64,000 bases of DNA, taken from positions 640,001-704,000 of the forward strand of contig CBDCXV010000010.1 of assembly GCA_965223905.1 (NCBI GenBank), read 5' to 3'. How positions within the stretch are numbered: the first letter of the stretch is position 1; each line of letters starts with the position of its first letter. The notes beneath the pieces are model-generated. The model did not search any database and was not told where the DNA came from. It was given only the letters and a program-made list of their open reading frames with translations. A program made the translations under genes and the position numbers. This document shows, in pieces, positions 3,172 through 37,077 of this stretch. This DNA is from Candidatus Latescibacterota bacterium. Lineage in GTDB: Bacteria > Latescibacterota > UBA2968 > UBA8231.

Positions 3172-4185
3172 ATGCCCATCCTCAACCTCGACAAGAAATC
3201 GCTCCCGCCGTACCTGCGCCGCAAGAAGATCGTCGTTCAGGGGGAATCGATCCGGGAGATCGACCCGGTGGGAGACGGCAGGAAGAACACCATCTACGCG
3301 GTCGTCACCTCGCGGCAGCGGCTGATCGTCAAGCAGGCGCACTCGCGGATCCAGCAGACCAAGGAGCGCATCTATCTCGACCGCAAGCGGATCTTCCATG
3401 AGAACGCCTGTATCGGCGTGCTCGCCGAGATCGTTCCCCCCGACTTCGTTCCCACCCCCCTTCTCCTCGACCGCAGCAATTTCATCCTCGTCACCACCGG
3501 GCCCGCTCGCGAGGCCCTGCTCTGGGAAAACGAGCTCCTGCGCGGGCGCGTCGACCTGCAGCTCGCCGCCCAGTGCGGCGAGCTGCTCGCCACGGTTCAC
3601 AACGACACGGTAAACTCGCGCGACCTGAGGGAGATGTTACAGAACACCAAGCCTTTCGAGCAGCTGCGCATCGCCCCTGCGTACGGCCGTGTCGCCGAAG
3701 CTTTTCCCGAGTACAAGAAGGTCATCGAGGATCAGTCCAAGGAGCTGCTGAAGGGCCGCAGGGTCATGGTTTTGGGCGACCTCCGTCCGCGCAACGTCTG
3801 GGTCAACAAGGGCTCGATCTTCCTCATCGATTTCGCCACCGCACATTACGGGAGCCCGGCGTTCGACCTCGCCTTCTACTGCAGCGACCTGTGTCTCAAG
3901 GCGATCATCAACAGCCCGCAGAAGGCCGCCTACCTCGAGGCCATCAACGTCTTCTGGTTGTCCTATTTCGGCGTCGCCCGGTATGCCCGGCAGCCGAAGG
4001 TCGAGCGCTCCGCGGTGAGGAGCTTCGGCTGTCTGCTGCTCGCCAGGGTCCAGTCCCCGCCACCGGACATGGACCCGGCGACCTGCGACCTCACCCGGCG
4101 GATCGCGCAGAGCCTGCTGACCACCGAACTCGAAAAGATTGAGGACATCACCGAGTTCATCAATCGCACCCTTATTGATGGATAG
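3172..4185 (+). CDS. Phosphotransferase, methylthioribose-kinase (MtnK)/APH-like, with degenerate motifs
   Basis: GDGRKNTIY and IVKQA resemble the MtnK N-lobe; LGDLRPRN catalytic loop; IDFATAHYGSPAFDL. Confidence 0.7.
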   Translation: MPILNLDKKSLPPYLRRKKIVVQGESIREIDPVGDGRKNTIYAVVTSRQRLIVKQAHSRIQQTKERIYLDRKRIFHENACIGVLAEIVPPDFVPTPLLLDRSNFILVTTGPAREALLWENELLRGRVDLQLAAQCGELLATVHNDTVNSRDLREMLQNTKPFEQLRIAPAYGRVAEAFPEYKKVIEDQSKELLKGRRVMVLGDLRPRNVWVNKGSIFLIDFATAHYGSPAFDLAFYCSDLCLKAIINSPQKAAYLEAINVFWLSYFGVARYARQPKVERSAVRSFGCLLLARVQSPPPDMDPATCDLTRRIAQSLLTTELEKIEDITEFINRTLIDG

Positions 4186-5782
4186 GAGCCTGCCCCGCGT
4201 CCGGCGCTTCGGCGCGGCGCTCGCGGCCGGGTTCCTCCTTACCTGCTCACTTCCCTCCCCGCGGCCCCACTACCGCCCCGACCTGCCGAAGCCGGCCCGG
4301 GAGTTCCGGGGCGTATGGGTGGCGACGGTCGCCAACATCGACTGGCCGTCTGCGCCCGGCATTCCGAGCCGAACCCAGCAGGCCGAAGCGCTCGCCATCC
4401 TCGAGCGCTGCCGCGCCCTCAACTTCAATGCCGTGATCCTTCAGGTCAGGCCGCAGTGCGACGTCATCTACCCCTCCGCCCTCGAGCCGTGGTCCTTCTT
4501 TCTCAGCGGCGAGCAGGGGCTCCCGCCGCAGCCGATCTACGATCCGCTGAGCTTCTGGGTCGACGAGGCCCACGCCCGCGGCCTCGAGCTCCATGCCTGG
4601 GTCAATCCGTTTCGCGCCAACCACCCCGGGCACAGGGGCAAGCTGTCTCCCCGGTCGATCGTCTCGCGGCGCCCCGACCTCGCGCTCCGGCTAGGCGGCA
4701 AGGGCTACTACTGGCTCGACCCCGGGCGGCCCGAGGCGCGGGCGCACACCATGGGGGTCATCCTCGAGGTCGTCGAACACTACGACGTCGACGGCATCCA
4801 CCTCGACGACTACTTCTACCCGTACCCCTCCTACAACGACGGCGCCGATTTTCCCGATGGGGACAGCTGGGCGGCCTACCGCGATTCCGGGGGCTCCCTG
4901 TCTCGGTCCGACTGGCGCCGCGGCAACGTCGACGATTTCGTCCGCGATCTCTATCGGGAGGTCAAGCAGCGGCGGCCCGAGGTAAAGGTCGGCATCAGTC
5001 CGTTCGGCATCTGGCGGCCGGGGCATCCCCCCGGCACGGAAGTGGGAGTGGACCAGTACGAAACCCTCTTCGCCGACCCCCGCCTGTGGCTGCGGCAGGG
5101 ATGGCTGGACTACTGCGCCCCGCAGCTGTACTGGCGCGTCGCCTCCGAGACCCGGAGCTTCCCGGCCCTGCTGTCCTGGTGGCTGGAGAACAACCTCCAG
5201 AGCCGCCACATATGGCCGGGCCTGTACACCAGCAGAGTCAGCCAGGGCAAATGGCCGGCCAGGGAGGTGGTCGATCAGATTGCGCTTGCCCGCGACATCC
5301 TCGATAGCGACGGGCATCTGCACTTCAGCATGCGCGCCATCCAGGCCGGGAATGGCCCCTCGCGGCAGCTGACCACCTCGATCGGGGCCCGGATATACGC
5401 CCAGCCGGCGCTCGTTCCCCGCTCGTCGTGGCTCGACTCCACGCCGCCGCCCCCGCCGGAGGTTGCCCCGATGGTACGGAACGGAAGCCGGGTCGAACTC
5501 TCCTGGAAGCAGCCGGCCGGGGAAGACCCGTTTCTCTACGTGGTGTACTCGAAGGCGGGAACGAGCTGGACCTACGACATCCTTCCCGGCACCCGGACAG
5601 GCCACGAGCTCGATTCCCGGGGGCTGTCGTGGTCGGGACCCGGGCGCGCAGAGCGCCGGGAGTTTGCGGTAAGCGCCGTCGACCGCCTGGGGAACGAGAG
5701 CAATCCGGTGATGGTCGCCTGCCCGTCGCAGGCAATCCGCAGGGCGGTTGGAGCCCCGGCGCCTCAACGCAGGTGGGACTGA
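4178..5782 (+). CDS. GHL10/UPF0748 (YddW/DigH-like) glycoside hydrolase lipoprotein with C-terminal Fn3-like domain
   Basis: Lipobox-like FLLTC; EFRGVWVATVANIDWPS, LELHAWVNPFR, YDVDGIHLDDYFYPYP, GISPFGIWR, PQLYW; C-terminal AVSAVDRLGNES. Confidence 0.9.
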   Translation: MDRSLPRVRRFGAALAAGFLLTCSLPSPRPHYRPDLPKPAREFRGVWVATVANIDWPSAPGIPSRTQQAEALAILERCRALNFNAVILQVRPQCDVIYPSALEPWSFFLSGEQGLPPQPIYDPLSFWVDEAHARGLELHAWVNPFRANHPGHRGKLSPRSIVSRRPDLALRLGGKGYYWLDPGRPEARAHTMGVILEVVEHYDVDGIHLDDYFYPYPSYNDGADFPDGDSWAAYRDSGGSLSRSDWRRGNVDDFVRDLYREVKQRRPEVKVGISPFGIWRPGHPPGTEVGVDQYETLFADPRLWLRQGWLDYCAPQLYWRVASETRSFPALLSWWLENNLQSRHIWPGLYTSRVSQGKWPAREVVDQIALARDILDSDGHLHFSMRAIQAGNGPSRQLTTSIGARIYAQPALVPRSSWLDSTPPPPPEVAPMVRNGSRVELSWKQPAGEDPFLYVVYSKAGTSWTYDILPGTRTGHELDSRGLSWSGPGRAERREFAVSAVDRLGNESNPVMVACPSQAIRRAVGAPAPQRRWD

Positions 5783-6522
5783 AAGTCTTTACTGCTCGAC
5801 AGGATGTGGGCGCGCATGCGCTCGCGCGCGGCCTTGGAGTCCTTGCCGGCGAGGGCGTCGAACACCTCGTGATGCTGCGCCACCGAAAGGCGGGCACGGT
5901 TCGCGGCCCGGGATGACGAGGTTTCCAGGCTCCCCTTGATCCACTCCTGCAGGTAGCCGCGGGTGGTGCGCACCAGGTTGTAGAGGATCGAGTTGTGGGC
6001 GGCGCGGGCGACCTCGAGGTGGAAGGCGACGTCGAACTCGAGGAACTCCCCCGGCCGTTCGATCTCCTTCTCCATTCCGCGCAGCGTCGCCGCGATCGCC
6101 GCGAGGTTCTCCCCGGTGGCGCGCTCCGCCGCCCACGATGCCGTGTTGGACTCGAGCATGAGCCGCGTTTCGATGAGGTCGCCGACCTGCTTCGGGTCGA
6201 GGGCGAAGCCCCACTCGTAGGCGCGCCCGAGGTAGCTCTCGTTGTCCGCCACGAAGGTGCCGTCCCCGACGCGGCCGGTGAGGATGCCCATCACCGAGAG
6301 CGACCGCAGGGCCTCGCGGACCGAGGTTCTCCCGACCGCGAAGCGGCGGCACAGCTCCCGCTCGGACGGCAGCCGGTCCCCCGGTTTCAGCACGTTGCGC
6401 GAGATCAGGTCGATGATCTGGTCGACGATGGCGTCGCTGACCGAGCTTTTCGGGACCGGCCGCAGGAGTTCGGCTCCTTCGGCGGCTCCCGTCCGTCCCC
6501 GGCTCGTTTCACCAGAACTCAT
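5764..6522 (-). CDS. GntR family (FadR subfamily) transcriptional regulator
   Basis: wHTH LKPGDRLPSERELCRRFAVGRTSVREAL...GDGTFV; FCD domain with DVAFH and QHHEV. Confidence 0.95.
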   Translation of the reverse strand: MSSGETSRGRTGAAEGAELLRPVPKSSVSDAIVDQIIDLISRNVLKPGDRLPSERELCRRFAVGRTSVREALRSLSVMGILTGRVGDGTFVADNESYLGRAYEWGFALDPKQVGDLIETRLMLESNTASWAAERATGENLAAIAATLRGMEKEIERPGEFLEFDVAFHLEVARAAHNSILYNLVRTTRGYLQEWIKGSLETSSSRAANRARLSVAQHHEVFDALAGKDSKAARERMRAHILSSSKDFQSHLR

Positions 6523-6562: not shown

Positions 6563-6575
6563 ATGGTCTGACCAT
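6563..6575. promoter_or_regulatory. FadR/GntR-type operator palindrome ATGGTC-T-GACCAT
   Basis: Perfect inverted repeat matching the TGGT-N3-ACCA FadR-subfamily consensus, in the divergent intergenic region next to the GntR gene. Confidence 0.8.
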
Positions 6576-6590
6576 CAGGCAGATTTTCTA

Positions 6591-6619
6591 TTGATACTCA
6601 GCCGGCAGCGCGCTGTCAA
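6591..6619 (-). promoter_or_regulatory. Putative sigma70 promoter of the GntR gene
   Basis: Minus strand TTGACA-N17-TATCAA; the operator lies just downstream. Confidence 0.5.
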
Positions 6620-6630
6620 GGAAGGTTGCC

Positions 6631-7278
6631 ATGCCCCGGATCCTCGACCTCGGCTCCCGCATCGAGCTCGTGCCGATGGACTTGCACTGCGAGGAGATCT
6701 CCATAGCCCTGTACCGCCAGGAGGAATCCGGCGGACCCGAGTTTCTCGTCCACACCTACAGCGGCAGGGAAGGCGCCAGCGAACGGGTCCGCTTCATATC
6801 CGCGGCGATGAAGGTGATGGGAAACGTCGAGGACTCCCCGGCGAACCCGGGCTGCCTGCGCTTCCCCTGCGGCCGCGGCCATGACCTGGCCTGCCGGCGG
6901 CTGTTCCTCGAGGCCTGCAAGCTCCCCAACGGCAGCGACCTCGCCCCCAGACCATTGTCCGTTTTCGACAAGAAGGCCGGCAAGGAGATGGTTGCCGTCA
7001 GCGAGGGGGAAGGCCTGTACAGGGTCAGCGCGGACGACCCGGGCGAAAGCATGACCTTGCGGCGCGTCGCCGCCACGGCAGGCGGCCTCGCCAAGCTCGG
7101 GGAAATGGAGCCGGCCGGCGACCGCCGGGACCAGATTCGCTTCGAGTGCGGCCAGGCGCACGACAACCTCGTCGCCGTGCTGCTGCCCCGGGCCCTCAAC
7201 GTGCGCACCGCCATGCGCGAGGCCGAGGCCGCGGCGGCGCGGGGAGTGCTCTCCGCTCCGAGCGCGCAGGACCGGTAG
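6631..7278 (+). CDS. Hypothetical protein with internal duplication (two RFxCGxxHD motifs)
   Basis: RBS-like AAGGAAGG, GC3-rich codons, first gene of the methyltransferase cluster. Confidence 0.8.
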   Translation: MPRILDLGSRIELVPMDLHCEEISIALYRQEESGGPEFLVHTYSGREGASERVRFISAAMKVMGNVEDSPANPGCLRFPCGRGHDLACRRLFLEACKLPNGSDLAPRPLSVFDKKAGKEMVAVSEGEGLYRVSADDPGESMTLRRVAATAGGLAKLGEMEPAGDRRDQIRFECGQAHDNLVAVLLPRALNVRTAMREAEAAAARGVLSAPSAQDR

Positions 7279-7349
7279 CTCGAGGACATGAGGGGATCTG
7301 TAACCGGGACAGAATGAAGAAGCCAGGCAACTGAAAAGGAGAACGTCTC

Positions 7350-8411
7350 ATGGCAGACACCAAACCGATGACTGGCCGCGAGCGCGTGCTCGCGGCGCTG
7401 CGCCGGGAGCCGGTCGACCGCACGCCCGTGTGCAATCCGACCTCGGTGGCGACCGTCGAGCTGATGGACCTCGTCGCCGCCCCCTTTCCCGAGGCCAACC
7501 GCAAGCCCGAGCTCATGGCCCGCCTCGCCGCCACCGGGTACACCGAGCTCGGCTTCGACACCATCATGCCGGTATTCACGATCATCCAGGAGTCCTCCGC
7601 CCTCGGCTGCAAGATCCAGTGGGAGCAGAAGGACAACTGGCCGACGGTGCGCATGCGCGAGCCGATCTACGAGAAGCTGGAGGACATCGTCATCCCGGAC
7701 GATCTCTGCACCCACCCCGACACCCGATGTGTCCTCAAGGCAATCTCCATCCTCAAGCGGGAGTACGGCGACGAGGTCGCGGTGATCGGCAAGACCATGG
7801 GGCCCTGGTCGCTCGCCTACCACTGCTTCGGCGTCGAGCCCTTCCTGTTGCTGTCGCTCGACGATCCGGATGCCACGCGCGCCATCCTCGACAAGCTGAA
7901 GAAGGTGACCGTCGACTTCGGCGTCGCCCAGATCGAGGCCGGCGCCGACGCCCTGACCCTGCCCGACCACGCCACCGGCGACCTGGTCAGCGGCGAGTAC
8001 TACGAACGCTATCTGCGCGACATGCACATCGAGTTCAGCGAGAGCATCCCGATTCCGCTGATTCTCCACATCTGCGGGCGCACCGTCGACCGCATGGAGT
8101 ACATCGCCCAGACCGGGATGGCCGCCTTCCACTACGACTCGAAGAACAAGCCGCAGGAGTCCGTCGACATCATGCGGCAGCGGATCTCGCTGGTCGGCAA
8201 CATCAACAACCCGGAAACGCTGTTCTCCAAGGGTCCCGGGGAGGTGCGGGCGGAAGTCTACAGGAACCTCGACGCCGGCGTGCAGCTGGTCGGCCCGGAA
8301 TGCGCCATACCGCTGCAGACCTCGATCGAAAACCTGCTGGAAATCCCCAAGGCGGTGCAGGACTGGCACCGGGAGCGCGCCTCTTCGGCAACCAACGCGA
8401 CGCTGAATTGA
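7350..8411 (+). CDS. MtaA/CmuA family methylcobamide methyltransferase (URO-D fold)
   Basis: MTGRERVLAAL..EPVDRTPV N-terminus, GPWSLA, QIEAGAD, Zn motif LHICG...GPEC, LVGNIN; RBS AAAAGGAG. Confidence 0.9.
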   Translation: MADTKPMTGRERVLAALRREPVDRTPVCNPTSVATVELMDLVAAPFPEANRKPELMARLAATGYTELGFDTIMPVFTIIQESSALGCKIQWEQKDNWPTVRMREPIYEKLEDIVIPDDLCTHPDTRCVLKAISILKREYGDEVAVIGKTMGPWSLAYHCFGVEPFLLLSLDDPDATRAILDKLKKVTVDFGVAQIEAGADALTLPDHATGDLVSGEYYERYLRDMHIEFSESIPIPLILHICGRTVDRMEYIAQTGMAAFHYDSKNKPQESVDIMRQRISLVGNINNPETLFSKGPGEVRAEVYRNLDAGVQLVGPECAIPLQTSIENLLEIPKAVQDWHRERASSATNATLN

Positions 8412-8413
8412 CG

Positions 8414-9163
8414 ATGGCTGAACTGTCCGACATTCAGAACGAAACGATCCGCTTCGAAATCGAGGAATACGTAGAGCGGCCCGAGGAAATCGAGCGCACC
8501 GTCGAGCTGTTCGCCGGGGCCCGGCCGCTGATGCAGGAGATCGCCGCGGCCCTGATCGAGGGCGATCACGGGACCGTCGATCGGCTTTCGAGACAGGCCC
8601 TGGACGAGGGCATCGAGGCGCTCGAAGTCATGGACGATGGCCTCATCGCCGGCATGGGCATCGTCGGCATCAAGTTCCGCGAGAACTTCATCTTCGTGCC
8701 CGAGGTGCTCTCCTGCGCCCGCGCAATGAAAGCCGGCATGGCCCACATCGAGCCGATCCTGTCGGCCTCGGGCGTGAAGAAGGCCGGCACCGTGATCATG
8801 GGGACCGTCAAGGGGGACCTCCACGACATCGGCAAGAACCTCTGCATCATGATGCTTCGGGGATCGGGCTTCGAGGTCATCGACCTCGGCGTCGACACCT
8901 CCGAGGACGAGTTCATCGACGCCGTCGAGGAGCACGGGGCGCCGCTGATCGGGATGTCGGCGCTGCTGACCACGACGATGCCGAACATGGGCAAGACCAT
9001 CGAGGCGTTCATCGACGCCGACCTGCGGGACGACGTGCAGATCATGGTCGGCGGAGCGCCGGTGACCCAGGAGTTCGCCGACGACATGGGGGCCGACGGT
9101 TACGGCAAGGACGCCCTGGCCTGCGTCGCTCTCGCCAAGGAGCTGGGCGGCTCGAAGACGTGA
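8414..9163 (+). CDS. Corrinoid (B12-binding) methyl carrier protein (MtbC/MetH cap + B12 domain)
   Basis: GLIAGMGIVG...FVPEVL cap; GTVKGDLHDIGKNL (DxHxxG); SALLTTT; MVGGAPV. ATG at 8414. Confidence 0.95.
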   Translation: MAELSDIQNETIRFEIEEYVERPEEIERTVELFAGARPLMQEIAAALIEGDHGTVDRLSRQALDEGIEALEVMDDGLIAGMGIVGIKFRENFIFVPEVLSCARAMKAGMAHIEPILSASGVKKAGTVIMGTVKGDLHDIGKNLCIMMLRGSGFEVIDLGVDTSEDEFIDAVEEHGAPLIGMSALLTTTMPNMGKTIEAFIDADLRDDVQIMVGGAPVTQEFADDMGADGYGKDALACVALAKELGGSKT

Positions 9164-9174
9164 CCTGACACGAG

Positions 9175-9492
9175 ATGCGCAAGATCACCCAGGAGGAGTA
9201 CCAGGAGCGCCTCGACCGCATCACCGGGCTGTTCGCCGACATGGTCTCCCACGCCGACGAGCAGTCGCGCTACCGCTGCCCGTACCGCAACCGCCACGAC
9301 GAGTGCACGGCCAAGATCCGCTGCCGCAACCAGCTGCCGGCGCGCTCCGAGGGGTCTCCGCTCATCTGTGGCCACGACGGCAGCTTCGACTACCGCGACG
9401 CCTGGGACTCCGACCCCGGGGCCGTCGAGAAGGCCCGCGACAAGATGTCCCGCATCAGGGACAAGGCCGGAGACCGTCGCCGGAGCGGGTGA
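9175..9492 (+). CDS. Small Cys-rich hypothetical protein (Cx8Cx5Cx14C)
   Basis: Exactly fills the gap between the corrinoid and ASKHA genes, with coding-like codon bias. Confidence 0.75.
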   Translation: MRKITQEEYQERLDRITGLFADMVSHADEQSRYRCPYRNRHDECTAKIRCRNQLPARSEGSPLICGHDGSFDYRDAWDSDPGAVEKARDKMSRIRDKAGDRRRSG

Positions 9493-9493
9493 C

Positions 9494-11149
9494 ATGGCCG
9501 CGGTGATCCACGACCAGGTGCGGACCGAGCTCTCCCCCGGCCGGACGATCTTCGACTACGCCGATGAGCTCGCCGTGCAGGTGCCCACCTCCTGCTACCG
9601 GACCGGCCACTGCCACGAGTGCGTGGTCGAGATCAGGAGCGGCATCGAGGCCCTGACGCCGCCGACGGAGGCGGAATCCTTCCTGCGCGACAACTACCGC
9701 CTCGCCTGCCAGGCCGAGATTCTCCGCGACGACGTCGACGTCGAGTTCGCACCGCTGCGGCGGACCCCGAAGATCCTGACCGCGGGCGTCGAAAAGGAGA
9801 TCCCCCTCGACCCGGTAGTGACGCGCCGGGGCGGCGGCGTGCTCTACGACGGCGAGCCGGTCGACGCCTACCGCGGGCACCTCTACGGGCTGGCGATCGA
9901 CCTCGGCACCACCACGGTGGTGATGCAGCTGATCGACCTGGAGTCGGGAGCGCCGGTCTCGGTCAGCTCCTTCGAGAATCCCCAGCGCTTCGGCGGCAGC
10001 GACATCATGCACCGCATTTCCTACGACGGCGGCGAATTCCGGGGAGAGCTGCAGCGGTCCCTGGCCAACGCTGTCAGCCACGAGATCCTCGAGCTGGGAA
10101 GGCGCTTCGGGTTCGCCCGGCAGGAGATCTACGAGATCGTCGTCGCCGGCAACTCGACCATGCGCGACCTGCTGTTCAAGCTCGACGTGCAGAGCATCGG
10201 GCAGAAGCCGTACAAATCGCTGATCGAGCACGAGTACCTCGAGGGCAACAGGCCGACCACCGCCCTGGTCGAGGACGCCCGCCGCCTCGGACTGCGCGCC
10301 AACCTGCGCACCAAGGTCTACAGCATGCCGCTGATCGCCAGCCACGTCGGCGCCGATACGGCCGCGGCCATCGCCGCCTGCGGCCTCGACCGCGACGCCG
10401 ACGAGGCCGCCATGATCGTCGATGTCGGCACCAACACCGAGGTCGTCGTCGCCGGGAGGGGCCGCATGCTGACCGCCTCCTGCCCGGCCGGCCCCGCCTT
10501 CGAGGGGGGCCTCGTGAAGTTCGGCATGCCGGGGTACGAGGGGGCGATCGAATCGCTGCGCCTCGCCCCGAACGGCAGCCGGGAGTTCGAGTACTCGACG
10601 ATCGGCGGGCTGCCGCCGCAGGGGATCTGCGGCTCCGGCCTGGTCGATCTCCTCGCCGAGCTGCGGCGCCGCGGACGGATGACGGAAATGGGGGTCTTCG
10701 GGGACAGGAAGCAGCGGCAGATGACCCTGATTCCCGAGCACGGCATCACCTTCTCGCGCGACGACGCCAGCAACCTCGCGCAGGCCAAGGCGGCCAACTA
10801 CTGCGGGCAGTTCATCACCCTGCGCGCTTTCGGAGTCGATCCCGGCGACGTCTCCAGGCTCTACCTCGCCGGAGGTTTCGCCAACTACATCGACGTCGGC
10901 AACGCCATCGACATCGGCTTCCTCGCCCCGGTGCCGCGGGAGCGCATCGTCAAGGTCGGCAACGCCGCGGTCCAGGGGGCCCGGGAGGTGCTGCTCAACC
11001 GGCGGCGGCGCGCCGAAATCGAAGCGCTCGTGCACGACATCGAGCACCTCGAGCTGGAGACGACGCCCGACTTCTTCGAGGTCTTCGTCGAGGGCTGCCA
11101 GTTCAAACCGATGCCGGCCCGCCTGGCCCCGGCCGCGGCGGGAGCGTGA
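9494..11149 (+). CDS. ASKHA-domain reductive activator of corrinoid enzymes (RACE/RamA-like) with N-terminal 2Fe-2S domain
   Basis: SCYRTGHCHEC...RLACQ ferredoxin; AIDLGTTT; NPQRFGGSDI; DVGTNTE; GPAFEG; GICGSG; LAGGFA; GNAA. Confidence 0.93.
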   Translation: MAAVIHDQVRTELSPGRTIFDYADELAVQVPTSCYRTGHCHECVVEIRSGIEALTPPTEAESFLRDNYRLACQAEILRDDVDVEFAPLRRTPKILTAGVEKEIPLDPVVTRRGGGVLYDGEPVDAYRGHLYGLAIDLGTTTVVMQLIDLESGAPVSVSSFENPQRFGGSDIMHRISYDGGEFRGELQRSLANAVSHEILELGRRFGFARQEIYEIVVAGNSTMRDLLFKLDVQSIGQKPYKSLIEHEYLEGNRPTTALVEDARRLGLRANLRTKVYSMPLIASHVGADTAAAIAACGLDRDADEAAMIVDVGTNTEVVVAGRGRMLTASCPAGPAFEGGLVKFGMPGYEGAIESLRLAPNGSREFEYSTIGGLPPQGICGSGLVDLLAELRRRGRMTEMGVFGDRKQRQMTLIPEHGITFSRDDASNLAQAKAANYCGQFITLRAFGVDPGDVSRLYLAGGFANYIDVGNAIDIGFLAPVPRERIVKVGNAAVQGAREVLLNRRRRAEIEALVHDIEHLELETTPDFFEVFVEGCQFKPMPARLAPAAAGA

Positions 11150-12762
11150 GGCCGGTGAGCACCGCGACGTCAGCCGCCGGTCCCTGGAACAAGCGCTCGC
11201 TGCGCCACCTGCTCGAACGCACCTGCGAGTTCGCCACCGTCGTCGAGCTGGTCAACTCGCGCGGCGTCATCACCGAGCGCGGTGGCAGCAAGGTGATGCA
11301 GCTGGCCCGCGGCCTCGCCGACCTGCCCGGGATCCACGCCCTGAGCATCACCGACAACCCGGGCGGCAACGCCGTTCTCAGCGCCGACACCCTCGGCTTC
11401 GACCTGCTCTCGCGGGGGCAGGACGTCATCATCCACCTCTCCTGCAAGGACTGGAACCGCAACGGCCTGCAGAGCCACGCCTGGCAGCTGGCCAGCGAGG
11501 GGTTCGAGAGCATTCTCGCCCTCTCAGGCGACTACCCCGCCGACGGCTACCGCGGCCGCGCCAGCGGCGTCTTCGACATCGACTCGGTCGGCCTCCTGAA
11601 AATGCTCTCCGACATGAATCAGGGGCTGGAAACGCGGACCCCAAAGGGCCGCCGGGCGCGCATGAAACGGACCGACTTCTTCCTCGGCGCCGTGGTGAAC
11701 AACTACAAGCGTCACGAGCGCGAGGTCATGCCGCAGTACTTCAAGCTCGCCGCCAAAGTCGCGGCCGGGGCCGCCTTCGTCATCAACCAGATCGGCTACA
11801 ACGCCCGCAAGATGGACGAGCTGGTCAAATACATGGCGCTCAAGGGAATGAACGTTCCGGTCCTCGCCAACGTCTACGTCCTCAGCGGACCCGCGGCGCG
11901 CTACTTCAACGCCGGCCGCATTCCCGGAGTGGTGGTGTCGGACGAGCTGCTCGCCGAAGTCGAGAGGTACGCCCGCGGCCGGGACAAGGGCAAGGGATTC
12001 CTTCTCGAGTTCGCCGCCAGGCAGTGCGCCGTCGCCCGCGGCCTCGGCTACCGCGGCGCCTACCTCGGCGGCCACCTCAAACAGGATGATTACGCGCGCA
12101 TTCTCGAGCTGACGGCCTCCTACGGCGACGGCGACTGGCGGGATTTCGCCGCGGATTTCCGCTACGGTTTCCCGGACGAGTTCCACTTCTTCGAGGCCGA
12201 CCCGGAGACCGGACTCTCCTCCACCGAGATCAACCGCGAGTACGAGGCTTCGCGAACCCCCGAGGCCCGCCGCGCCCTGCGCCGCCAGGTGCCGCTGGCC
12301 TACAAGCTCAACCGGGCCGCCCACGAGGTTCTGTTCGAGCCGGACCGCCCGGCATTCAAGGCCGGCGAAAAACTGTTCGCCGCGGCCGATAACAGCGAGG
12401 GGCCGCGCAGGCTCCTTCACGCCGTCGAGCAGGCGGTCAAGGTGCCGGCCTTCGACTGCCGCGACTGCGGCGACTGCTCCCTGCCGGACATCGCCTTCCT
12501 CTGCCCGGAGTCGCAGTGCGTCAAGAACCAGCGCAACGGTCCCTGCGGCGGCACCCGCGACGGCAAGTGCGAGGTCGGGGAGAAGGACTGCATCTGGGCG
12601 CGGGCGTACGACCGCCTCAAAGCCTACGGGGAGGAGGAAGGGATGCTGGAGCGGCCGGTCGTCTACCGCGACGGCACTCTCGAAGGGACCAGCGCCTGGG
12701 GCAACACCTTCCTCGGACGCGACCACCACGCCGCGAACCATTCCGGGGCGCAGGCGGAATGA
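11146..12762 (+). CDS. metF: Methylenetetrahydrofolate reductase with fused C-terminal Cys-rich MTHFR_C (MetV-like) domain
   Basis: SITDNPGG, IHLSCKDWNR, ILALSGD, INQIGY; C-terminal CRDCGDC...CPESQCVKNQRNGPCGG...CE..CIW. GTG start overlaps the upstream TGA (alternative GTG 11155). Confidence 0.88.
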   Translation: MRPVSTATSAAGPWNKRSLRHLLERTCEFATVVELVNSRGVITERGGSKVMQLARGLADLPGIHALSITDNPGGNAVLSADTLGFDLLSRGQDVIIHLSCKDWNRNGLQSHAWQLASEGFESILALSGDYPADGYRGRASGVFDIDSVGLLKMLSDMNQGLETRTPKGRRARMKRTDFFLGAVVNNYKRHEREVMPQYFKLAAKVAAGAAFVINQIGYNARKMDELVKYMALKGMNVPVLANVYVLSGPAARYFNAGRIPGVVVSDELLAEVERYARGRDKGKGFLLEFAARQCAVARGLGYRGAYLGGHLKQDDYARILELTASYGDGDWRDFAADFRYGFPDEFHFFEADPETGLSSTEINREYEASRTPEARRALRRQVPLAYKLNRAAHEVLFEPDRPAFKAGEKLFAAADNSEGPRRLLHAVEQAVKVPAFDCRDCGDCSLPDIAFLCPESQCVKNQRNGPCGGTRDGKCEVGEKDCIWARAYDRLKAYGEEEGMLERPVVYRDGTLEGTSAWGNTFLGRDHHAANHSGAQAE

Positions 12763-12784
12763 ACCATTTTTCCTGGAAAAGCGA

Positions 12785-13861
12785 ATGAAGCTGCAGGACC
12801 CCGATCTCGACTTCGTCATCGTCGGCGAGAATATCCACACCACGCGGGTGGTGATGCGCCGCGGCAAGCTGGTGACCGCGGACGCCGACGGCCGCGAAGC
12901 GGTGCGCTACACCTCGGCCGCGGGCGAACGCCGCCACCTGGCTATCCCCGAGGCGGTGAAGCGCACCCAGGATTACGAGGAGGGGCGCGTCAAGCACGTC
13001 AAGATCGCCCTGCAGGGGGCGATGTCCGGGGAGGGCGAACCCGCGGCAGAGGGAATGCAGTACCTCGAACGGCTGGTTCAGCGCCAGGAACAGGCTGGGG
13101 CCGACTTCCTCGACCTCAACGTCGACGAGATCTCGCTGAAACTCGAAGAGCAGAAGGCGGCGATGGCCTGGCTCGTGCGCACTGTGCAAGGCATGTCGGA
13201 AATCCCGGTGTCCGTCGATTCCTCCAATGTCGAGACCATCGCCACCGGCCTGGAGGCGTGCGACAAGTCCAAGGGGCGGCCGCTGCTCAACTCCGCCTCG
13301 CTCGAGCGCCTCGAAGCTCTCGATCTCGCCGTCGAGAACGACGCCGGCGTCATCGTCACCGCGGCCGGCGATTCCGGGATGCCGGAGAGCGCCGAGGAGC
13401 GCATCGGCAATGCCTCGCGCATGGTCGATGCGGCTTTCGACAGGGGGATTGCCGACAGCGACATCTACATCGACCCGCTGATATTCCCGATCTCGGTGGA
13501 CGGCCGCTTCGGCCTTCACAGCTTCGAGGCGATCCGCGGCCTGCGCGAGAAATACGGCCCCCGCATTCACATAACCGGGGGCATGAGCAACGTTTCATTC
13601 GGCATCCCGAGCCGCAAGTGGATCAACGACGTCTTCATGATGCTCGCGGTCGAGGCCGGGGCCGACAGCGGCATCATCGATCCGGTGACCAGCCGGCCGG
13701 ACAAGGTGTTCGCCCTCGACCGCAGCTCACGTCCCTACCAGCTGGCCGAGGACGTGCTGATGGGCAGGGACGAGCACTGCGCCGGGTACATCCGGGCTTG
13801 GCGAAAGGGGGAGCTCGGAGACGGCGGCCCCGCGCGCCGCAGGCCGCGGCCGAGGAGATGA
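12785..13861 (+). CDS. Pterin-binding methyltransferase (AcsE / MetH folate domain-like)
   Basis: IVGENI, GADFLDLNVD, SVDSS, LLNS, IDPL, GGMSNVSFG, GADSGIIDP. Confidence 0.9.
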   Translation: MKLQDPDLDFVIVGENIHTTRVVMRRGKLVTADADGREAVRYTSAAGERRHLAIPEAVKRTQDYEEGRVKHVKIALQGAMSGEGEPAAEGMQYLERLVQRQEQAGADFLDLNVDEISLKLEEQKAAMAWLVRTVQGMSEIPVSVDSSNVETIATGLEACDKSKGRPLLNSASLERLEALDLAVENDAGVIVTAAGDSGMPESAEERIGNASRMVDAAFDRGIADSDIYIDPLIFPISVDGRFGLHSFEAIRGLREKYGPRIHITGGMSNVSFGIPSRKWINDVFMMLAVEAGADSGIIDPVTSRPDKVFALDRSSRPYQLAEDVLMGRDEHCAGYIRAWRKGELGDGGPARRRPRPRR

Positions 13862-14871
13862 AACCGCTTCTCGAGCGCCTGGAGGAAGGCCCACTCCTCT
13901 ACGACGGCGCCTTCGGCACCGAGCTGTTCGCCCGCGGCATCGAGCTGCCGAACAGCGCCATGGCCAACCAGCTGCATCCCGACGCCGTCCTCGACATCCA
14001 TCGCCGCTACATCGAGGCGGGCTCCGAGATGATCCACGTCAACACCTTCGTCGGCTCTCCGCTTCACCTCGAGATGGCCGACCCCGAAGCCGATGCCGGC
14101 CGCATCGCCGCCCTGGCCGTCGCCCACGCCCGCCGGGCGGCCGCGGAAGCAGGGCGCGATATCTATGTCGCAGGCAGCCTCGGCCCTTCCCCCGGCGCCA
14201 TCGAAGCGGATGCCGGCGGCACCGATTTCGGCATCCCGGACGCCAAGGTCCGCGACGCCCACCAGCGGGTCGCCGCGGCCCTGGCAGAGGGAGGGGTCGA
14301 CCTCTTCGTCATCGAAACGATGTTTTCCGCCAACGAAGCGGCGATCGCCGTCGACGTCGCGCGCCGTTTCGGGCTTCCCGTCGCCCTCTGCCTCACCTAC
14401 AAGTACACGCGGGACCGCCATACCCGGGGGATCGTCTACAGGACCGACTGGGGCCACTCCGCAGGGGACCTGCTCGAAGTCCTCGCCTCGGGGAAGCACT
14501 CCAACGGCGACGACCTCTTGGAATCGGTCGACCTGCTCGGGCTGAACTGCGGCGCCGAGCAGCGCCGCCGCGAGCACACCGGCATGCCGTACGCCCTGCT
14601 CGGCATCGAGCAGCTCAATGAGGCGATGGATGCCCGCGGCATGGCCCGCAAGAAGACGATCGCCTTCCCGAACGCGGGCATGCCCCGTCTCGACGAGCGC
14701 CAGCGCACCGTGTATTCGCAGACCCCGGAAGAGATGGCGGCCGAGGTCCCCGCCCTGCTCGCCGCCGGCGCCGCGGTCGTCGGGGGATGCTGCGGAACCG
14801 ACCCCGACCATATCCGTGGATTCGCCGCAGCCATGGCCGCGGCCGGTTGGCCGCGGCAGCAGGAGCAATAG
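13858..14871 (+). CDS. Homocysteine S-methyltransferase domain protein
   Basis: [51 protein letters not shown] (Zn ligands). ATGA overlap with the upstream gene. Confidence 0.92.
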
Positions 14872-14874
14872 CAG

Positions 14875-15141
14875 ATGGCCCAATACCAGATCCTCTTCTG
14901 GCAGGACATCCCCGCCCAGGTCCGCGTCTTCGACGGGCGCCGGCCGCTTTCGCAAAAAATGCCCGACCGCTTCCAGGAGGCGATCGACCAGTCGGCGATG
15001 GAGCAGGGGCTCGAGGGCACCGACGACTACCTCGAGCAGTGGAGCTGGACCGCCAGGCAGGAGCGGCCCGGCAGCCCGCAGGAGGTGCTCGAAGCGCTCC
15101 TGACCGAGCTCGAAGTGGAGTTCGACCGCAGGGACTCATGA
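14875..15141 (+). CDS. Small 'virulence factor' family protein of the type associated with corrinoid/MetF clusters
   Basis: [12 protein letters not shown]...[11 protein letters not shown]...DDYLEQW signature. Confidence 0.78.
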
Positions 15142-17036
15142 GCACCTACCCCAAGACCTACGACGTCGTCGTCGTCGGGGGCGGTCACGCCGGCACCGAG
15201 GCGGCCCTCGCCGCCGCCCGCATGGGGGCCGAAACCCTGCTGCTGACCATGAACCTCGACACCGTGGCGCAGATGTCGTGCAACCCCGCCATCGGCGGTA
15301 TCGGCAAGGGCCACATGGTCGTGGAGATCGACGCCCTCGGGGGCGCCATGGCCGCCAACACCGACCGCTCCGGGATCCAGTTCCGCCGCCTCAACACCAG
15401 CCGCGGTCCCGCGGTGCGCGCCTGCCGCGCCCAGTGCGACAAGAAGGTGTACCAGCTCGAAATGAAGTACACCTGCGAAGCCCAGGACCGCCTCGACCTG
15501 CGCCAGGGAATGATGGAGAGCCTGATCGTCGAAGGCGGCCGCGTCACTGGGGTCGGGGTCAAGGGGGGGATCCTCTACCGGGGGCGCACCGTCATCCTGA
15601 CCACGGGAACCTTCCTCAAGGGCAGGATCCACGTCGGCGACTTCAGCTACAACTCCGGCCGCGCCGGGGAGGCGGCCGCCGACAGGGCCTCGGAGGGTCT
15701 CGCCTCCCTCGGGTTCGAGATCGGGCGCCTGAAGACCGGCACCCCGCCCCGCGTCAACGGCCGCAGCATCGACTTCGACGCCCTCGAGAGGCAGCCGGGC
15801 GACGACCCGCCGCGAATGTTCTCGTACGAAAGCGAGGGCCCGGTGCTGCCGCAGCTCCCCTGCTGGATCGCCTACACCAACAGCGAAACCCATGACCTCA
15901 TCCGCGGCAACCTCGGCCGCTCTGCCATGTACAGCGGCCGCATCGAGGGGGTGGGACCGCGCTACTGCCCCTCGATCGAGGACAAGATCGTCAAGTTCGC
16001 CGACCGCGAGCGCCACCAGGTCTTCGTCGAGCCGGAGGGAGTCCGCACCCTCGAGTTCTACATCAACGGCCTGTCGATGAGCCTGCCCGAAGAGCTCCAG
16101 CACGACATCCTGCGCACCGTTCCCGGTCTCGAGCGCGCCGAGATCATGCGCCCCGCCTACGCCGTCGAGTACGACTACGCGCCGCCGACGCAGCTGTACG
16201 CGTGGCTGGAAACCAAGCTCGTCGACTCGCTCTTCTTCGCCGGGCAGATCAACGGCACCACCGGGTACGAGGAAGCCGCGGCCCAGGGCCAGCTCGCCGG
16301 CATCAACGCCGTGCTCAAGGGGCGCGGCGAGGAGCCGTTCGTGCTGAAGCGCTCCGAGGCTTACATGGGGGTGCTGGTCGACGACCTGGTGACCAAGGGA
16401 ACGCCGGAGCCGTACCGGATGTTCACCTCGCGCGCCGAGTACCGCCTGCTGCTGCGCGAGGACAACGCCGACTACCGGCTGATGGAACACGGGCGCCGCT
16501 TCGGAATGGTGGGAGACAGTGCCTGGAACCGGTTCCGGCGCAAGCAGCGGGACGTCGCCGAGGAGCTGGCGCGGCTGCGCAGCGTGCGCATCCGGCCCGG
16601 GGAAGGAGTGAACGAGGTGCTGGAAAGACAGGGCACGGCGAAGATCTCCGAGGCGGCCCTGCTCGCCGACCTGCTGCGGAGGCCGCAGCTCGGGTACGAC
16701 GACGTCTGCGAGCTGTCGCCCCCGCCGCGGCCCCTGCCAGCCGACGCCGCCGAGCACGTCGAGGCGGAGATCAAGTATGAAGGGTACATCGACCGGCAGC
16801 AGCAGGAGGTCGCCAAGGTACGGCGCCTCGAGGAGCTCGTCATACCGGCCGATTTCGACTTCGAGGCGGAGGCCGACAAGCTGTCGACGGAGGCGCGCCA
16901 GAAGCTCTCCGCGGTGCGGCCCCGCACCCTGGGACAGGCCTCCCGGATCTCGGGTGTCTCCCCCGCGGACGTATCCTCCCTGATGGTCATCCTGCACGCC
17001 CGCCGGGCAAATGCGGATACGGTTCCACCCCGGTGA
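15138..17036 (+). CDS. mnmG: tRNA uridine-5-carboxymethylaminomethyl modification enzyme MnmG (GidA)
   Basis: [76 protein letters not shown]. Confidence 0.98.
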
Positions 17037-19698: not shown

Positions 19699-20547
19699 GT
19701 GAGCAAGAGTTTCTGGGATTCCACCCCACGCCATTTCCCCACCCAGGAGGAGTTGGCGGCCCTCGACAGGGACCTGCGGTTTCACCCCGCGCCGGCTACC
19801 GCCGGGGAGAAGCTGAGCCCCGGGCAGCTGGAGTCCTACAACCGCGAGGGGTACCTGCTGCCGTTCCGGGTGTTCCCGGAGGGCGAGATCGGACAGTTCC
19901 GCGCCCATGTCGACGGCTGGCTCGAGGAGACGCAGCGCCAGGGGGCCGACAGCTACTCGATCGTTTCGGCGCACATGAAGCACGGCATCGTCTGGGACCT
20001 CCTCAGGGACCGGCGCATCACCGCCTTTGTCGGCGACATCCTCGGCGGGGACTTCATCTGCTGGGGCGCCCACTTCTTCTGCAAGATGCCGGGCGACGGC
20101 AAGCGCGTCTCCTGGCACCAGGACGCCAGCTACTGGCCCCTGAGCCCCTCGAAGACGGTCTCCGTCTGGCTCGCCGTGGACAGGGCCGACCGCGAAAACG
20201 CCTGCATGCAGTTCGTCGCCGGCTCCCATCTTCACGGCCACCTCGATTTCATCCGCAGCGCCGAGTCGGAGGCCAACATCCTCAACCAGACCGTCCCGGA
20301 GGCGGAACGCTTCGGGCACGGGGTCGTCGACGTCGAGCTCGAAGCGGGAGAGATATCCCTGCACTCCGACCTGCTGCTGCACGGCTCGGCGCCGAACCTG
20401 TCCGACCGCCGCCGCTGCGGCCTCACCCTGCGCTACGCCGCCACCGAGGTGCGCGCCGAGTACAACTGGAACTCCGAGGGAGTCGTCGTCAGCGGCAGCG
20501 ACCCGAGCGGACACTGGGCCGATCCGCCGCGCCCCGAGATCGACTGA
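19699..20547 (+). CDS. Phytanoyl-CoA dioxygenase (PhyH) family Fe(II)/2OG oxygenase
   Basis: YNREGY, WHQD, ENACMQFVAGSH, LHGS..N.SDRRR. Confidence 0.92.
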   Translation: MSKSFWDSTPRHFPTQEELAALDRDLRFHPAPATAGEKLSPGQLESYNREGYLLPFRVFPEGEIGQFRAHVDGWLEETQRQGADSYSIVSAHMKHGIVWDLLRDRRITAFVGDILGGDFICWGAHFFCKMPGDGKRVSWHQDASYWPLSPSKTVSVWLAVDRADRENACMQFVAGSHLHGHLDFIRSAESEANILNQTVPEAERFGHGVVDVELEAGEISLHSDLLLHGSAPNLSDRRRCGLTLRYAATEVRAEYNWNSEGVVVSGSDPSGHWADPPRPEID

Positions 20548-22256: not shown

Positions 22257-23165
22257 CTACGATTTGGCCGGCACTACCTCCCAGCGGTGATGCCTGGCGC
22301 CCCTGGCCGCCTCAGCTGCCAGGGCCTCTGCCCACATCCGCGCCCACTCGCCGTGATCGGTCAGCACCGAGTCCGGGTTCGAGCGGCTGCGCACCACGAA
22401 GTCCGGGTAGAACGGGCGCCCGGTCGGGGTGCCGGTCTTCTGGTATCGCAGGTCCATGCTCCAGCGCACCGTGTCGGTGTTGTTCGGGGTCGAGCGATGG
22501 GGGATCTCCTTGCTCATCAACAGCAGGTCCCCCTTCTCCATCGGCAGGGTCAGCGGTTCGACGTCGGGCATCGCCTCTTCGGCGATCACCGTCCCCCTGC
22601 CCTGGATGGTCTCGTGTTTCCACAGCCCGGTCTTGTGCACCCTGGGGATGATCTGGAGACAGCCGTTTTCCGGCGTCGCCGGGACCATCGGCAGCCATAC
22701 CGTCAGGATGAAGTGGGGATCCGCCTCTTCCCAGGTGACGCCGGCGTCCTGGTGCCAGGGCGCCACGTGGCCGTCCCCCATCTTGGTGGTGCCGTGCGGC
22801 AGCTTGCCGCGGATGTGCTGGATCGGGCTGCAAGTGATCTCCGGCCCGACGATGGGTTCGACGAGACCCAGCAGGTTGTCGTTGAGCAGAAATTCGAACG
22901 ACGCCTTCCCCCGCAGCCGGTATATGTCGAGGTCGTCGTAGATCTCCGCGCACTGGTCGTTGATCAGGGCGAGCCGCTTGTCGAACGGGGCATCGGCGTG
23001 CGGATCCCCGATCTTCCCCTCTGCCAGCAGCTCGTTCGCCCGCCGGTCGATGTGCGCCTCGTACTCCTCGATCACGGGGTCGATGTCGCTGTCCGAGAGG
23101 GCGCCCCGCAGCAGCAGGAAGCCGTCGTTGTCGAACATCTTCAGTTGTTCTTCGGTCAGTCCCAT
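22257..23165 (-). CDS. PhyH family Fe(II)/2OG dioxygenase
   Basis: LTEEQLKMFDNDGFL, WHQD, ENGCLQIIP, PHRSTPN...RWSMDLRY; ATG at 23165. Confidence 0.92.
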   Translation of the reverse strand: MGLTEEQLKMFDNDGFLLLRGALSDSDIDPVIEEYEAHIDRRANELLAEGKIGDPHADAPFDKRLALINDQCAEIYDDLDIYRLRGKASFEFLLNDNLLGLVEPIVGPEITCSPIQHIRGKLPHGTTKMGDGHVAPWHQDAGVTWEEADPHFILTVWLPMVPATPENGCLQIIPRVHKTGLWKHETIQGRGTVIAEEAMPDVEPLTLPMEKGDLLLMSKEIPHRSTPNNTDTVRWSMDLRYQKTGTPTGRPFYPDFVVRSRSNPDSVLTDHGEWARMWAEALAAEAARGARHHRWEVVPAKS

Positions 23166-23406
23166 GTCAGCGCTCCGATTTTGTGAAGGGTGCTTTCTCA
23201 AAGGTGCCACTTGGAGGGGAAGTCATCAAGAATTCGCGTCGATACTCGCGATTCCTGTTCCTATTCAATTTCCTGATTATGTCATATTTTCCGGCGCCTT
23301 ATACCCACCAGGGCAACATACGACCGATGACCGGCACCCGACTTATGGGCCGTGCAACAGGCGGGCGGAGTCGGATTCCCCAATTAGTTCAGTTAGAGCG
23401 AAAACA

Positions 23407-26406: not shown

Positions 26407-26409
26407 GAG

Positions 26410-29154: not shown

Positions 29155-29155
29155 C

Positions 29156-30510: not shown

Positions 30511-30650
30511 CCGCACCGAGGCATTTTGCACGACGACGACATGCGCGGGGCCACGCGCCCGGCGTACTCCTCTTGCATCCGGGATGGATTGTCCGTCGAG
30601 CCGCTGGGGGACGCCTGCCGCCCCGCTCGGGAATACGGTGGAACGAGACA

Positions 30651-37060: not shown

Positions 37061-37077
37061 AGACGAATGGCAAAGGG

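Follow-up and report, generated by a model that had tools for sequence, protein, structure and literature searches.

The window analysed here is a stretch of 64,000 nucleotides (nt) from a Candidatus Latescibacterota bacterium (assembly GCA_965223905.1, contig CBDCXV010000010.1, positions 640,001 to 704,000), and this text deals with an operon of nine plus-strand genes, g1 to g9, at positions 6631-15141 of it (Table 1). According to our analysis, the operon very probably encodes a corrinoid methyl-transfer system built around one shared carrier protein and including a split methionine synthase (MetH). As the best reading of its function, which we advance tentatively and at a little less than an even chance, we posit that g1 and g2 demethylate a methyl-sulfur or methyl-selenium compound onto the carrier g3, from which the methyl group would pass to homocysteine and to tetrahydrofolate (THF). 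The operon may let its host marine bacteria use methyl-sulfur compounds. An earlier note, made from the sequence alone, had proposed that one carrier serves three methyltransferases and that the methyl donor is a methyl-sulfur compound or a halomethane. The parts of such a system are complete and their catalytic motifs intact, and the donor-side role of g2 is a proposal; of the two kinds of donor, methyl-sulfur (or methyl-selenium) compounds are favoured and halomethanes have lost ground.

A conserved operon

The nine genes were delimited from stop-to-stop frames, third-position GC content and in-frame starts. They are tightly spaced, with gaps of 71, 2, 11, 1, -4, 22, -4 and 3 nt in succession from g1 to g9, and gene calls, Pfam and NCBIfam agree with the co-oriented arrangement and the named domains that had been described for them. 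Third-position GC is 0.89-0.95 for g1, g4 and g9, where the stop-to-stop frame is nearly the gene itself, and lower (0.62-0.91) for the remaining cluster genes, where the frame extends beyond the gene; the overall GC content of the window is 0.58-0.70 when taken over 2-kb segments.

Relatives of g2 were sought in one genome per species, which gave at least 487 loci, and the best 80 of these were used for all locus counts. The resulting synteny counts are lower bounds, as some loci stop at contig ends. The hosts belong to the Poribacteria, Latescibacterota, Acidobacteriota, Gemmatimonadota and Lentisphaerota. The closest locus, on a Candidatus Latescibacterota chromosome (L001), has a g2 that is 98% identical to that of the window and other cluster proteins that are 89-97% identical. 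This synteny survey bears out the cluster: 79 of the 80 loci, spread over the five phyla, have g1 immediately ahead of g2, the exception (L055) ending at a contig end, and g3, g4 and g5 are present in 39, 37 and 36 loci, respectively. Further downstream the order varies, with g6 found in 26, g7 in 22, g8 in 23 and g9 in 18 of the 80 loci. The order g1-g2-g3-g4-g5 is fixed in 36 of 80 loci and, taken together with the gap of only 2 nt between g2 and g3, argues for these genes being one unit. The operon is therefore real and strongly conserved, and its arrangement did not arise by chance. Median identity to the window protein is highest for g2 (83%) and g3 (81%), followed by g5 (69%), g6 (66%), g7 (64%), g8 and g9 (60% each) and g1 and g4 (51% each).

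One variant of the operon is of particular weight for what follows. Eight Latescibacterota loci have the order g1-g2-g3-g4/5-g8 and contain neither g6 nor g7 within 10 kb; two of them (L026, L062) also have g9. In a FastTree phylogeny of 81 g2 rows, these eight loci form one group with a support of 93.

The methyltransferase g2

The g2 protein has 353 residues and is separate from g3. It passes both models of the MtaA/CmuA family, TIGR01463 (248.8 bits, cut-off 235.4) and NF004889 (252.6 bits, cut-off 244), and its closest solved structure is MtaA of M. mazei (4AY7, E 2.9e-52, 181 bits). The H-x-C...C motif, seen earlier as a zinc motif of an MtaA-like enzyme, corresponds to H240, C242 and C318; it carries the same letters as 4AY7 column for column, and all 22 aligned relatives keep it unchanged. 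In 4AY7 these columns are presumably the zinc ligands.

Several other identities were considered for g2 and rejected. As supposed before, it is not a true uroporphyrinogen decarboxylase (UroD, HemE), scoring 68.2 bits against a cut-off of 302.95 for TIGR01464 and at most 54.9 bits against HemE structures versus 181 for MtaA. An equivalog of the methanogen enzymes MtaA or MtbA is likewise not indicated, given 232.1 bits against a cut-off of 400 for NF040654 and 192 against 600 for NF041608. With respect to the chloromethane enzyme CmuA, g2 has no fused corrinoid domain and shows 24% identity and 36.6 bits to the CmuA N-domain, so that it is not close to CmuA either. A tblastn search with g2 that did match hemE genes gave nothing at E<=1e-3 on the chloromethane plasmid pCMU01, which was part of the collection; the CmuA reference sequence was obtained by way of its carrier domain, after a direct protein search of plasmids had given none at the same threshold. 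CmuA, too, has H-x-C...C in the alignment with g2, and cmuC, the gene beside cmuA, is without similarity to g2.

The superfamily literature, as far as the accessible parts of the sources go, agrees with this placement. In a preprint by Kountz and Balskus the His-Cys-Cys site marks the S- and Se-methyltransferases of the UroD superfamily, and the O-demethylases have one or both cysteines replaced by carboxylates or non-ligands (PMC10418091). The known halomethane enzymes CmuA, MecE/C and CdmB are placed in other branches, either early-diverging or related to O-demethylases, and CdmB is described as working without zinc (PMC13222342). Together, the MtaA score, the zinc site, the weak likeness to HemE and CmuA and this literature point to a thiol/thioether-type (or selenol-type) corrinoid methyltransferase, judged from sequence, and make an O-demethylase unlikely. 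A methyl-sulfur or methyl-selenium donor fits g2 better than a halomethane.

Relatives of g2 in the five phyla share 80-86% identity with it. In a large protein collection, 3524 of 7999 scored candidates matched at E<=1e-10; among the 120 matches listed, identities range from 80 to 99% and the names, where there are any, are MtaA/CmuA family methyltransferase or CoM methyltransferase.

g1, the constant partner of g2

Because g1 stands next to g2 in nearly every locus (79 of 80), we regard it as a subunit of that enzyme or a helper dedicated to it. It had been described simply as an unknown protein, and this holds as far as family membership goes; what can be added is its constant partnership with g2. 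It matches no NCBIfam model and no Pfam family even at E<=10. A profile search against the PDB reached a best E of 0.24. The AlphaFold2 (AF2) model is confident (predicted local distance difference test score, pLDDT, 89.8; predicted template modelling score, pTM, 0.85) and finds no fold match in the PDB with Foldseek (best E 0.049, template modelling score 0.21), nor was there a usable match in the ESM Atlas. The wider family comprises 732 clusters, each of them unnamed or called 'hypothetical protein', and a profile search of 1.84 billion representatives at 50% identity gave 277 matches at E<=1e-3. g1 is thus a new protein family with a confident fold that has no known match, tied to a methanogen-type enzyme.

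The protein consists of an internal duplication, the two halves aligning with a probability of 95.3% and an E value of 2.4e-8 in HHalign. Each half carries F-x-C-G-x-x-H in the aligned position, with C80/H84 in the first and C173/H177 in the second, and these four residues are invariant among 35 close relatives. Among the more distant members, C80, H84 and C173 are replaced in two of six aligned full-length proteins (P0375, P0376), one of which also lacks H177. A Cys2His2 metal site may lie at the interface of the repeats.

Convincing fusions of g1 were not found; the longest protein among the 150 matches listed has 359 residues, and a Pfam scan was made of seven of the matches. That longest match (P0301) has no further Pfam domain. 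A second long match (P0327, 345 residues) combines the N-terminal part of g1 with the first 96 positions of URO-D, and we regard it as a fragment or frameshift because it is incomplete on both sides. Kinship between the g1 repeats and g9 was rejected as well (HHalign probability 0.14%).

Co-fold prediction lends weak support to binding between g1 and g2. With own alignments the pair scored 0.54 (runs 0.00, 0.54 and 0.83) and the best of three controls 0.00; between runs, 2% or more of the contacts coincide, and the pLDDT of the partner is 76 or higher. Of 157 solved complexes 116 pass the mark set for such predictions, as against 2 of 215 mismatched pairs, counts that are approximate with own alignments. 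Scores of 0.60 or below comprise 18 of the 157 solved complexes and both of the mismatched pairs that pass.

Core module and accessory proteins

Five of the remaining proteins, g3, g5, g6, g7 and g8, would make up a complete MetF plus split-MetH module. The homocysteine-binding (g8, PF02574), pterin-binding (g7, PF00809) and corrinoid-binding (g3, PF02310 and PF02607) domains of MetH occur as separate proteins, and g3, g7 and g8 can be read together as a three-piece MetH. In g3 the DLHDIG motif is intact at residue 135; its top NCBIfam model is of MtgC type (200.9 bits, under the cut-off of 370). g7 reaches 208 bits against NF005719, under the cut-off of 259. The zinc cysteines of g8 are C231 and C311-C312, and g6 has a C-terminal cysteine cluster at residues 438-482.

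Reactivation of the carrier had been assigned to a RACE-type activator in place of the S-adenosylmethionine (SAM)-dependent domain of MetH, and this is what the domains indicate. g5 has the architecture of a RACo/RamA activase, with an N-terminal 2Fe-2S domain (Fer2, 1.8e-8; cysteines 34, 40, 43 and 72), a middle domain (Raco_middle, 1.7e-39) and an ASKHA ATPase domain (RACo_C_ter, 5.8e-64), and lies under the cut-offs for AcsV (255 versus 800) and RamA (106 versus 500). A SAM-dependent reactivation domain was not matched in any of the nine cluster proteins (Pfam, E<=0.01).

Two small proteins, which had been listed as a 'Cys protein' and a 'virulence factor', are indeed present, and gene fusions recast the first as an accessory module of the activase and the second as one of the corrinoid protein. 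g4 matches neither Pfam nor NCBIfam, and its four cysteines, read from the sequences, are conserved across relatives. In 19 of the 37 loci with g4 it forms a single open reading frame (ORF) with RACo, and blastp confirmed both parts in five of five cases checked; for this reason we consider g4 a detachable N-terminal module of the activase g5. An orphan module thereby gains RACo as its working context. g9 matches PF13769 with 68.3 bits at a gathering threshold of 25. A segment homologous to it (40% identity, E 1.4e-15) forms the C-terminus of a corrinoid ORF of Gemmatirosa kalamazoonensis (L083:8971-9942), a single case, since a search for longer g9 homologues gave just one protein. The AF2 model of g9 has a pLDDT of 92.7, and the PDB gave no match by sequence and none by fold (best E 0.63). 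We read g9 as a likely accessory of the corrinoid protein and not as a virulence factor in this setting; the 'virulence factor' label of PF13769 is misleading here, its working context being corrinoid proteins.

Proposed route and alternatives

From the observed gene content, motifs, conservation, g1-g2 linkage and the two fusions, we infer the catalytic steps, the direction in which g2 works, the nature of its donor and the role of g1 as follows. g3 would be the cobalamin carrier, and g5 with its cysteine module g4 would spend ATP to bring it from Co(II) back to Co(I). g1-g2 would transfer a methyl group to Co(I)-g3 from a methyl-sulfur compound, for instance dimethyl sulfide (DMS), methanethiol or methylmercaptopropionate (MMPA), or from a methyl-selenium compound. 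g8 would pass it on from g3 to homocysteine to give methionine, g7 would exchange methyl groups between the carrier and THF, and g6, being of MetF-MetV type, would connect methyl-THF with methylene-THF. g9 would assist the carrier, and expression would be controlled by g0, a putative GntR/FCD repressor encoded divergently from g1.

The combination of a methyltransferase, a carrier and an activase is the usual layout of substrate-specific corrinoid systems. We place g2 on the donor side mainly because of two comparisons. Where g6 and g7 are missing, as in the eight loci described above, no enzyme but g2 could act on the donor side next to the homocysteine methyltransferase. In Aminobacter, a carrier that is 45% identical to g3 stands beside an MttB-family methyltransferase, and the Gemmatirosa cluster likewise has a donor-type enzyme in this position; one carrier type therefore seems to pair with different donor enzymes across genomes.

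A number of points weigh against this placement. Characterised MtaA-type enzymes mostly carry methyl groups from a methyl-cobamide to a thiol, so that g2 could be an acceptor-side enzyme. For ordinary methionine synthesis g3, g5, g6, g7 and g8 suffice, no external donor being needed. No gene for a transporter, a methanethiol oxidase, sulfide handling or another sulfur function recurs nearby, either in the window or in the scanned flanks (38 ORFs from 6 loci and 66 ORFs from 17 of the 80 loci). The g1-g2 pair stands alone among unrelated neighbours in 41 of 81 rows, 38 of which form one Poribacteria clade with a support of 100. Finally, the zinc-ligand rule comes from a preprint, and halomethanes are compatible with the H-x-C...C motif taken alone because CmuA keeps it, too.

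The alternative that survives best, which we nonetheless hold to be unlikely, puts g1-g2 on the acceptor side. MetF and a split MetH would then be joined by a second outlet: g7 would load g3 from methyl-THF, and g1-g2 would use methyl-Co(III)-g3 to methylate a thiol, sulfide or selenide, giving a methylthio or methylseleno product for detoxification or for a cofactor, with no external donor. MtaA, the closest solved relative of g2, works in this way, its His-Cys-Cys zinc activating thiolates; the full methyl-THF supply line (g6, g7) lies in the cluster, and uptake or sulfur-oxidation genes are missing from the window and the scanned flanks. However, the same enzyme type also runs from a thioether to Co(I), as in MtsA and MtpA. 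Moreover, the eight loci without g6 and g7 would have two outlets and no inlet, and the clusters of Gemmatirosa and Aminobacter hold donor-type enzymes in the position in question. On the side of the acceptor role stands ClMlp2, whose assay, in the part of the source available, was methyl transfer from methylcobalamin to selenide (PMC10418091).

It is improbable that g3 and g5-g9 simply form a split methionine synthase beside which g1-g2 happen to lie, serving an unrelated process with another carrier. The pairs without the remaining genes would fit this idea, as would the Gemmatirosa core, which exists without g1-g2. The pair-only state, however, requires just two changes on the g2 tree, and since 38 of its rows fall into a single clade it goes back essentially to one rearrangement, through which g1 was kept with g2. 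A further argument against mere adjacency is the close coupling of g2 to g3, together with a gene order kept in 36 of the 80 loci of five phyla, and g2 and g3 are the most conserved proteins (median identities of 51-69% for the others), which fits a shared interface.

A chloromethane or bromomethane dehalogenase of CmuA type, supplying THF and methionine, is quite improbable in our view. g2 does pass the joint MtaA/CmuA family model, shares the motif with CmuA and has a THF methyltransferase and MetF in its cluster, as in the cmu system. Against this stand its lack of a fused corrinoid domain, its far lower score against CmuA than against MtaA, the empty search of pCMU01 and the position of the known halomethane enzymes, zinc-free CdmB included, in other branches (PMC13222342, as far as accessible).

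The UroD-fold MT1 enzymes of O-demethylases occur in similar three-component clusters, GntR-type regulators control some vanillate systems and the Gemmatirosa UroD relative carries an O-type site. All the same, that g2 takes its methyl group from methoxylated aromatics or other O-methyl compounds is very improbable, as both of its cysteines are kept in 22 of 22 relatives, its MtaA score is far above expectation for the O-demethylase branch and the cysteines of real O-demethylases are replaced by carboxylates or non-ligands in the portion of the preprint available (PMC10418091).

Relation to described systems

The concept of a shared carrier is already known. In Ruegeria pomeroyi, one corrinoid protein was shown genetically in 2025 to be common to catabolic, THF and homocysteine methyltransferases, according to the accessible part of that study (PMC12478193). 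As in the MtgBCDE/split MetH system of R. pomeroyi and Phaeobacter inhibens, the window encodes separate corrinoid, pterin-binding and homocysteine-binding proteins with one carrier, a RamA/RACo-type activase in place of the SAM domain and an additional MetF next to the THF methyltransferase, matched here by g6; the donor-specific methyltransferase that feeds the same carrier there would correspond to g1-g2 (PMC12478193). The donor enzyme of these bacteria is MtgB, whose substrate is glycine betaine and which belongs to the MttB superfamily, in contrast to the MtaA-type g2 with g1. A further difference is that the window unites all parts in one operon, which lacks DUF1638 and has g4 and g9 in its stead (source as before, seen in part). 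What is found here is accordingly another donor enzyme and an operon variant with the new family g1.

g2 shares its fold and its His-Cys-Cys zinc site with the soluble coenzyme M methyltransferases of methanogens, MtaA and likewise MtsA and MtpA. It differs from MtaA and MtbA in remaining below the equivalog cut-offs and in having THF and homocysteine methyltransferases as partners, and g1 is without counterpart in the methanogen system. To our knowledge, bacteria are not known to make coenzyme M.

Type 1 mlp clusters, as presented in the available sections of the preprint, occur in obligate anaerobes and have two or three Mlp paralogues and no THF methyltransferase (PMC10418091). The window, by contrast, has a single UroD-family gene together with methyltransferases for THF and for homocysteine and with MetFV, and three PhyH-type dioxygenases are encoded in the same genome. 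Identity with a type 1 mlp cluster, which would call for Mlp2 and Mlp3 paralogues without a THF methyltransferase, was rejected.

The CmuAB system of Methylorubrum extorquens CM4 (pCMU01) also comprises a UroD-fold methyltransferase, a corrinoid domain and a THF route, with folD and purU near its locus. Methyltransferase and carrier are fused there, unlike here, and g3 is 36% identical to the CmuA carrier domain. The cluster on plasmid 1 of G. kalamazoonensis, a cultured member of the Gemmatimonadota, is unannotated and contains, in this sequence, a UroD-family methyltransferase, a corrinoid protein, the PF13769 segment, RACo and a homocysteine methyltransferase, with identities of 53% for g3, 46% for g5 and 38% for g8. 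Its UroD enzyme has H-N-D instead of H-x-C and neither of the two cysteines; g1 and g4 are missing, and the g9 homologue is part of the carrier ORF. An ORF of 403 residues (L083:11806-13017), which has no Pfam or NCBIfam match, separates RACo from the homocysteine methyltransferase in this cluster.

Regulation and genomic context

Three features of the operon borders go beyond the earlier note, namely the divergent GntR/FCD gene g0, a palindromic operator between g0 and g1 and the overlap of g9 with mnmG. The palindrome matches once in the window, compared with 0.06 matches expected. Of the 25 loci with g0, 22 carry its core GGTCNGACC in the 350 nt that precede g1, and none of the 54 loci lacking g0 does; over 1.49 Mb of loci the core occurs 35 times in total. 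A g0 homologue is found in this divergent arrangement in 25 of the 80 loci. Dedicated GntR/FCD regulators are commoner for inducible catabolic operons, and a ligand-sensing repressor suits an inducible function better than constitutive methionine synthesis, which we count as weak evidence. A second conserved word, TGTCAAG, is found at about 6610-6625 between the operator and the start of g1 and also in printed Poribacteria intergenic regions, and it could represent a promoter element or else another binding site. No riboswitch or RNA regulator was detected, the Rfam search at gathering score giving only one tRNA in the window. Sites resembling sigma-70-type promoters numbered zero in the window, and terminator-like sites numbered seven, with 5.0 expected.

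The mnmG gene (g10) is probably co-transcribed with g9, and its product takes a one-carbon unit from methylene-THF. Only the window and two of the 80 loci (L001, L011) have it behind g9, and it is not a conserved member of the cluster. A GHL10 glycosyl-hydrolase-like gene lies at 4139-5782.

Recurrent neighbours in Latescibacterota and Gemmatimonadota are a GFO/IDH/MocA oxidoreductase and a Cof-type HAD hydrolase. They form a co-oriented pair just upstream of the cluster in nine loci (L003, L014, L021, L026, L027, L028, L036, L039 and L062), although in three of them (L021, L026 and L036) the oxidoreductase either does not adjoin or went unseen in the scans; the window lacks this pair. In Poribacteria the recurrent neighbours are Ldh_2, PhyH and mobile elements. 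Seven Poribacteria loci (L009, L012, L013 and L015-L018) have 3-6 kb inserted between g5 and g6, with IS605/TnpB-type, DDE transposase, Eco57I-type methylase and HNH nuclease genes, and in L012 a formate-THF ligase gene stands beside the regulator. On an Acidobacteriota contig (CBDFLD010000014.1), about 60 kb separate two clusters with identical g2 (L008, L010), which could be a duplication or an assembly repeat. In the g2 tree, a Gemmatimonadota g2 (L027) falls inside the Latescibacterota and an Acidobacteriota g2 (L010) is sister to a Latescibacterota one, which suggests interphylum transfer or binning errors.

The O2-dependent dioxygenases mentioned in the earlier note are present as three PhyH-family genes in the window. 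Several loci of Poribacteria and Latescibacterota (L009, L011, L012, L013, L024) likewise have PhyH genes within the cluster or next to it. A defence island of lower GC content (0.58-0.65) extends over 22960-38343 on the plus strand; an Nsn system is embedded in it, and it also contains a DUF7680 gene.

Table 1. Positions of the operon genes and of other features in the window.
Feature	Position	Strand	Evidence or remark
g0, divergent GntR/FCD-family transcription regulator	5764-6522	-	Pfam GntR 2.2e-19, FCD 5.5e-24
Palindromic operator TGGTCTGACCA	6564-6574		g0/g1 intergenic region; perfect palindrome
g1, 215-residue protein of unnamed family, internal tandem duplication	6631-7278	+	no family match
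g2, MtaA/CmuA-family UroD-fold corrinoid methyltransferase (predicted)	7350-8411	+	Pfam URO-D 2.1e-64
g3, corrinoid (B12-binding) carrier protein	8414-9163	+	Pfam B12-binding 2e-28, B12-binding_2 5.4e-21
g4, 105-residue four-cysteine protein	9175-9492	+	no family match
g5, RACo/RamA-type ATP-dependent reductive activase	9494-11149	+	Pfam Fer2, Raco_middle, RACo_C_ter
g6, fused MetF-MetV-type methylene-THF reductase	11146-12762	+	MTHFR 7.7e-13, MTHFR C-terminal domain DUF5981 9.5e-26
g7, pterin-binding methyl-THF:corrinoid methyltransferase	12785-13861	+	Pfam Pterin_bind 2.4e-22
g8, homocysteine S-methyltransferase	13858-14871	+	Pfam S-methyl_trans 5.3e-51
g9, small PF13769 (Virulence_fact) protein	14875-15141	+	Pfam 7.4e-19
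g10, mnmG	15138-17036	+	TIGR00136 857 bits; start overlaps g9 stop by ATGA
PhyH-family dioxygenase	19699-20547	+	
PhyH-family dioxygenase	22257-23210	-	
HmaC	22960-26406	+	PADLOC
NsnA	26901-28010	+	PADLOC
NsnB	27994-29154	+	PADLOC
NsnC	29156-30115	+	PADLOC
HmaB DUF1156 methylase	30573-33659	+	PADLOC
SNF2+PLD helicase, HmaA/BrxH/DrmD type	33656-36844	+	PADLOC
ATPase in defence island	37027-38343	+	
PhyH-family dioxygenase	43983-44822	-	

Implications

A cobalamin-dependent DMS methyltransferase of aerobic bacteria has long been sought; it is said to have been postulated by Visscher and Taylor in 1993. In the consulted part of a 2019 account it is suggested to be cobalamin-dependent and to feed THF, and it had not yet been identified (PMC6548844). 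The literature from 2019 on gave no identification of an aerobic DMS methyltransferase, and no description of the cluster or of g1 in Poribacteria, Latescibacterota or elsewhere was found (in both searches, subscription journals lie outside the coverage). That g1-g2 is this long-postulated DMS/methanethiol methyltransferase, with g1 as a metal-binding subunit of new fold, with methyl groups going to methionine and THF and with a wide distribution in five phyla, is a bolder and, for the time being, doubtful proposal. If our favoured reading holds, there would be a concrete candidate for the enzyme sought since 1993.

The operon extends the 2025 finding that methionine synthesis and methyl catabolism can run over one carrier to further phyla and to donor enzymes of what would be a second class. 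Poribacteria are chiefly sponge symbionts, and if our favoured reading holds, they and other abundant marine phyla known largely from metagenomes would gain a B12-dependent route from methyl-sulfur or methyl-selenium compounds to methionine and folate. DMS, methanethiol or MMPA would thereby have a further sink, one that goes uncounted in present marker-gene surveys.

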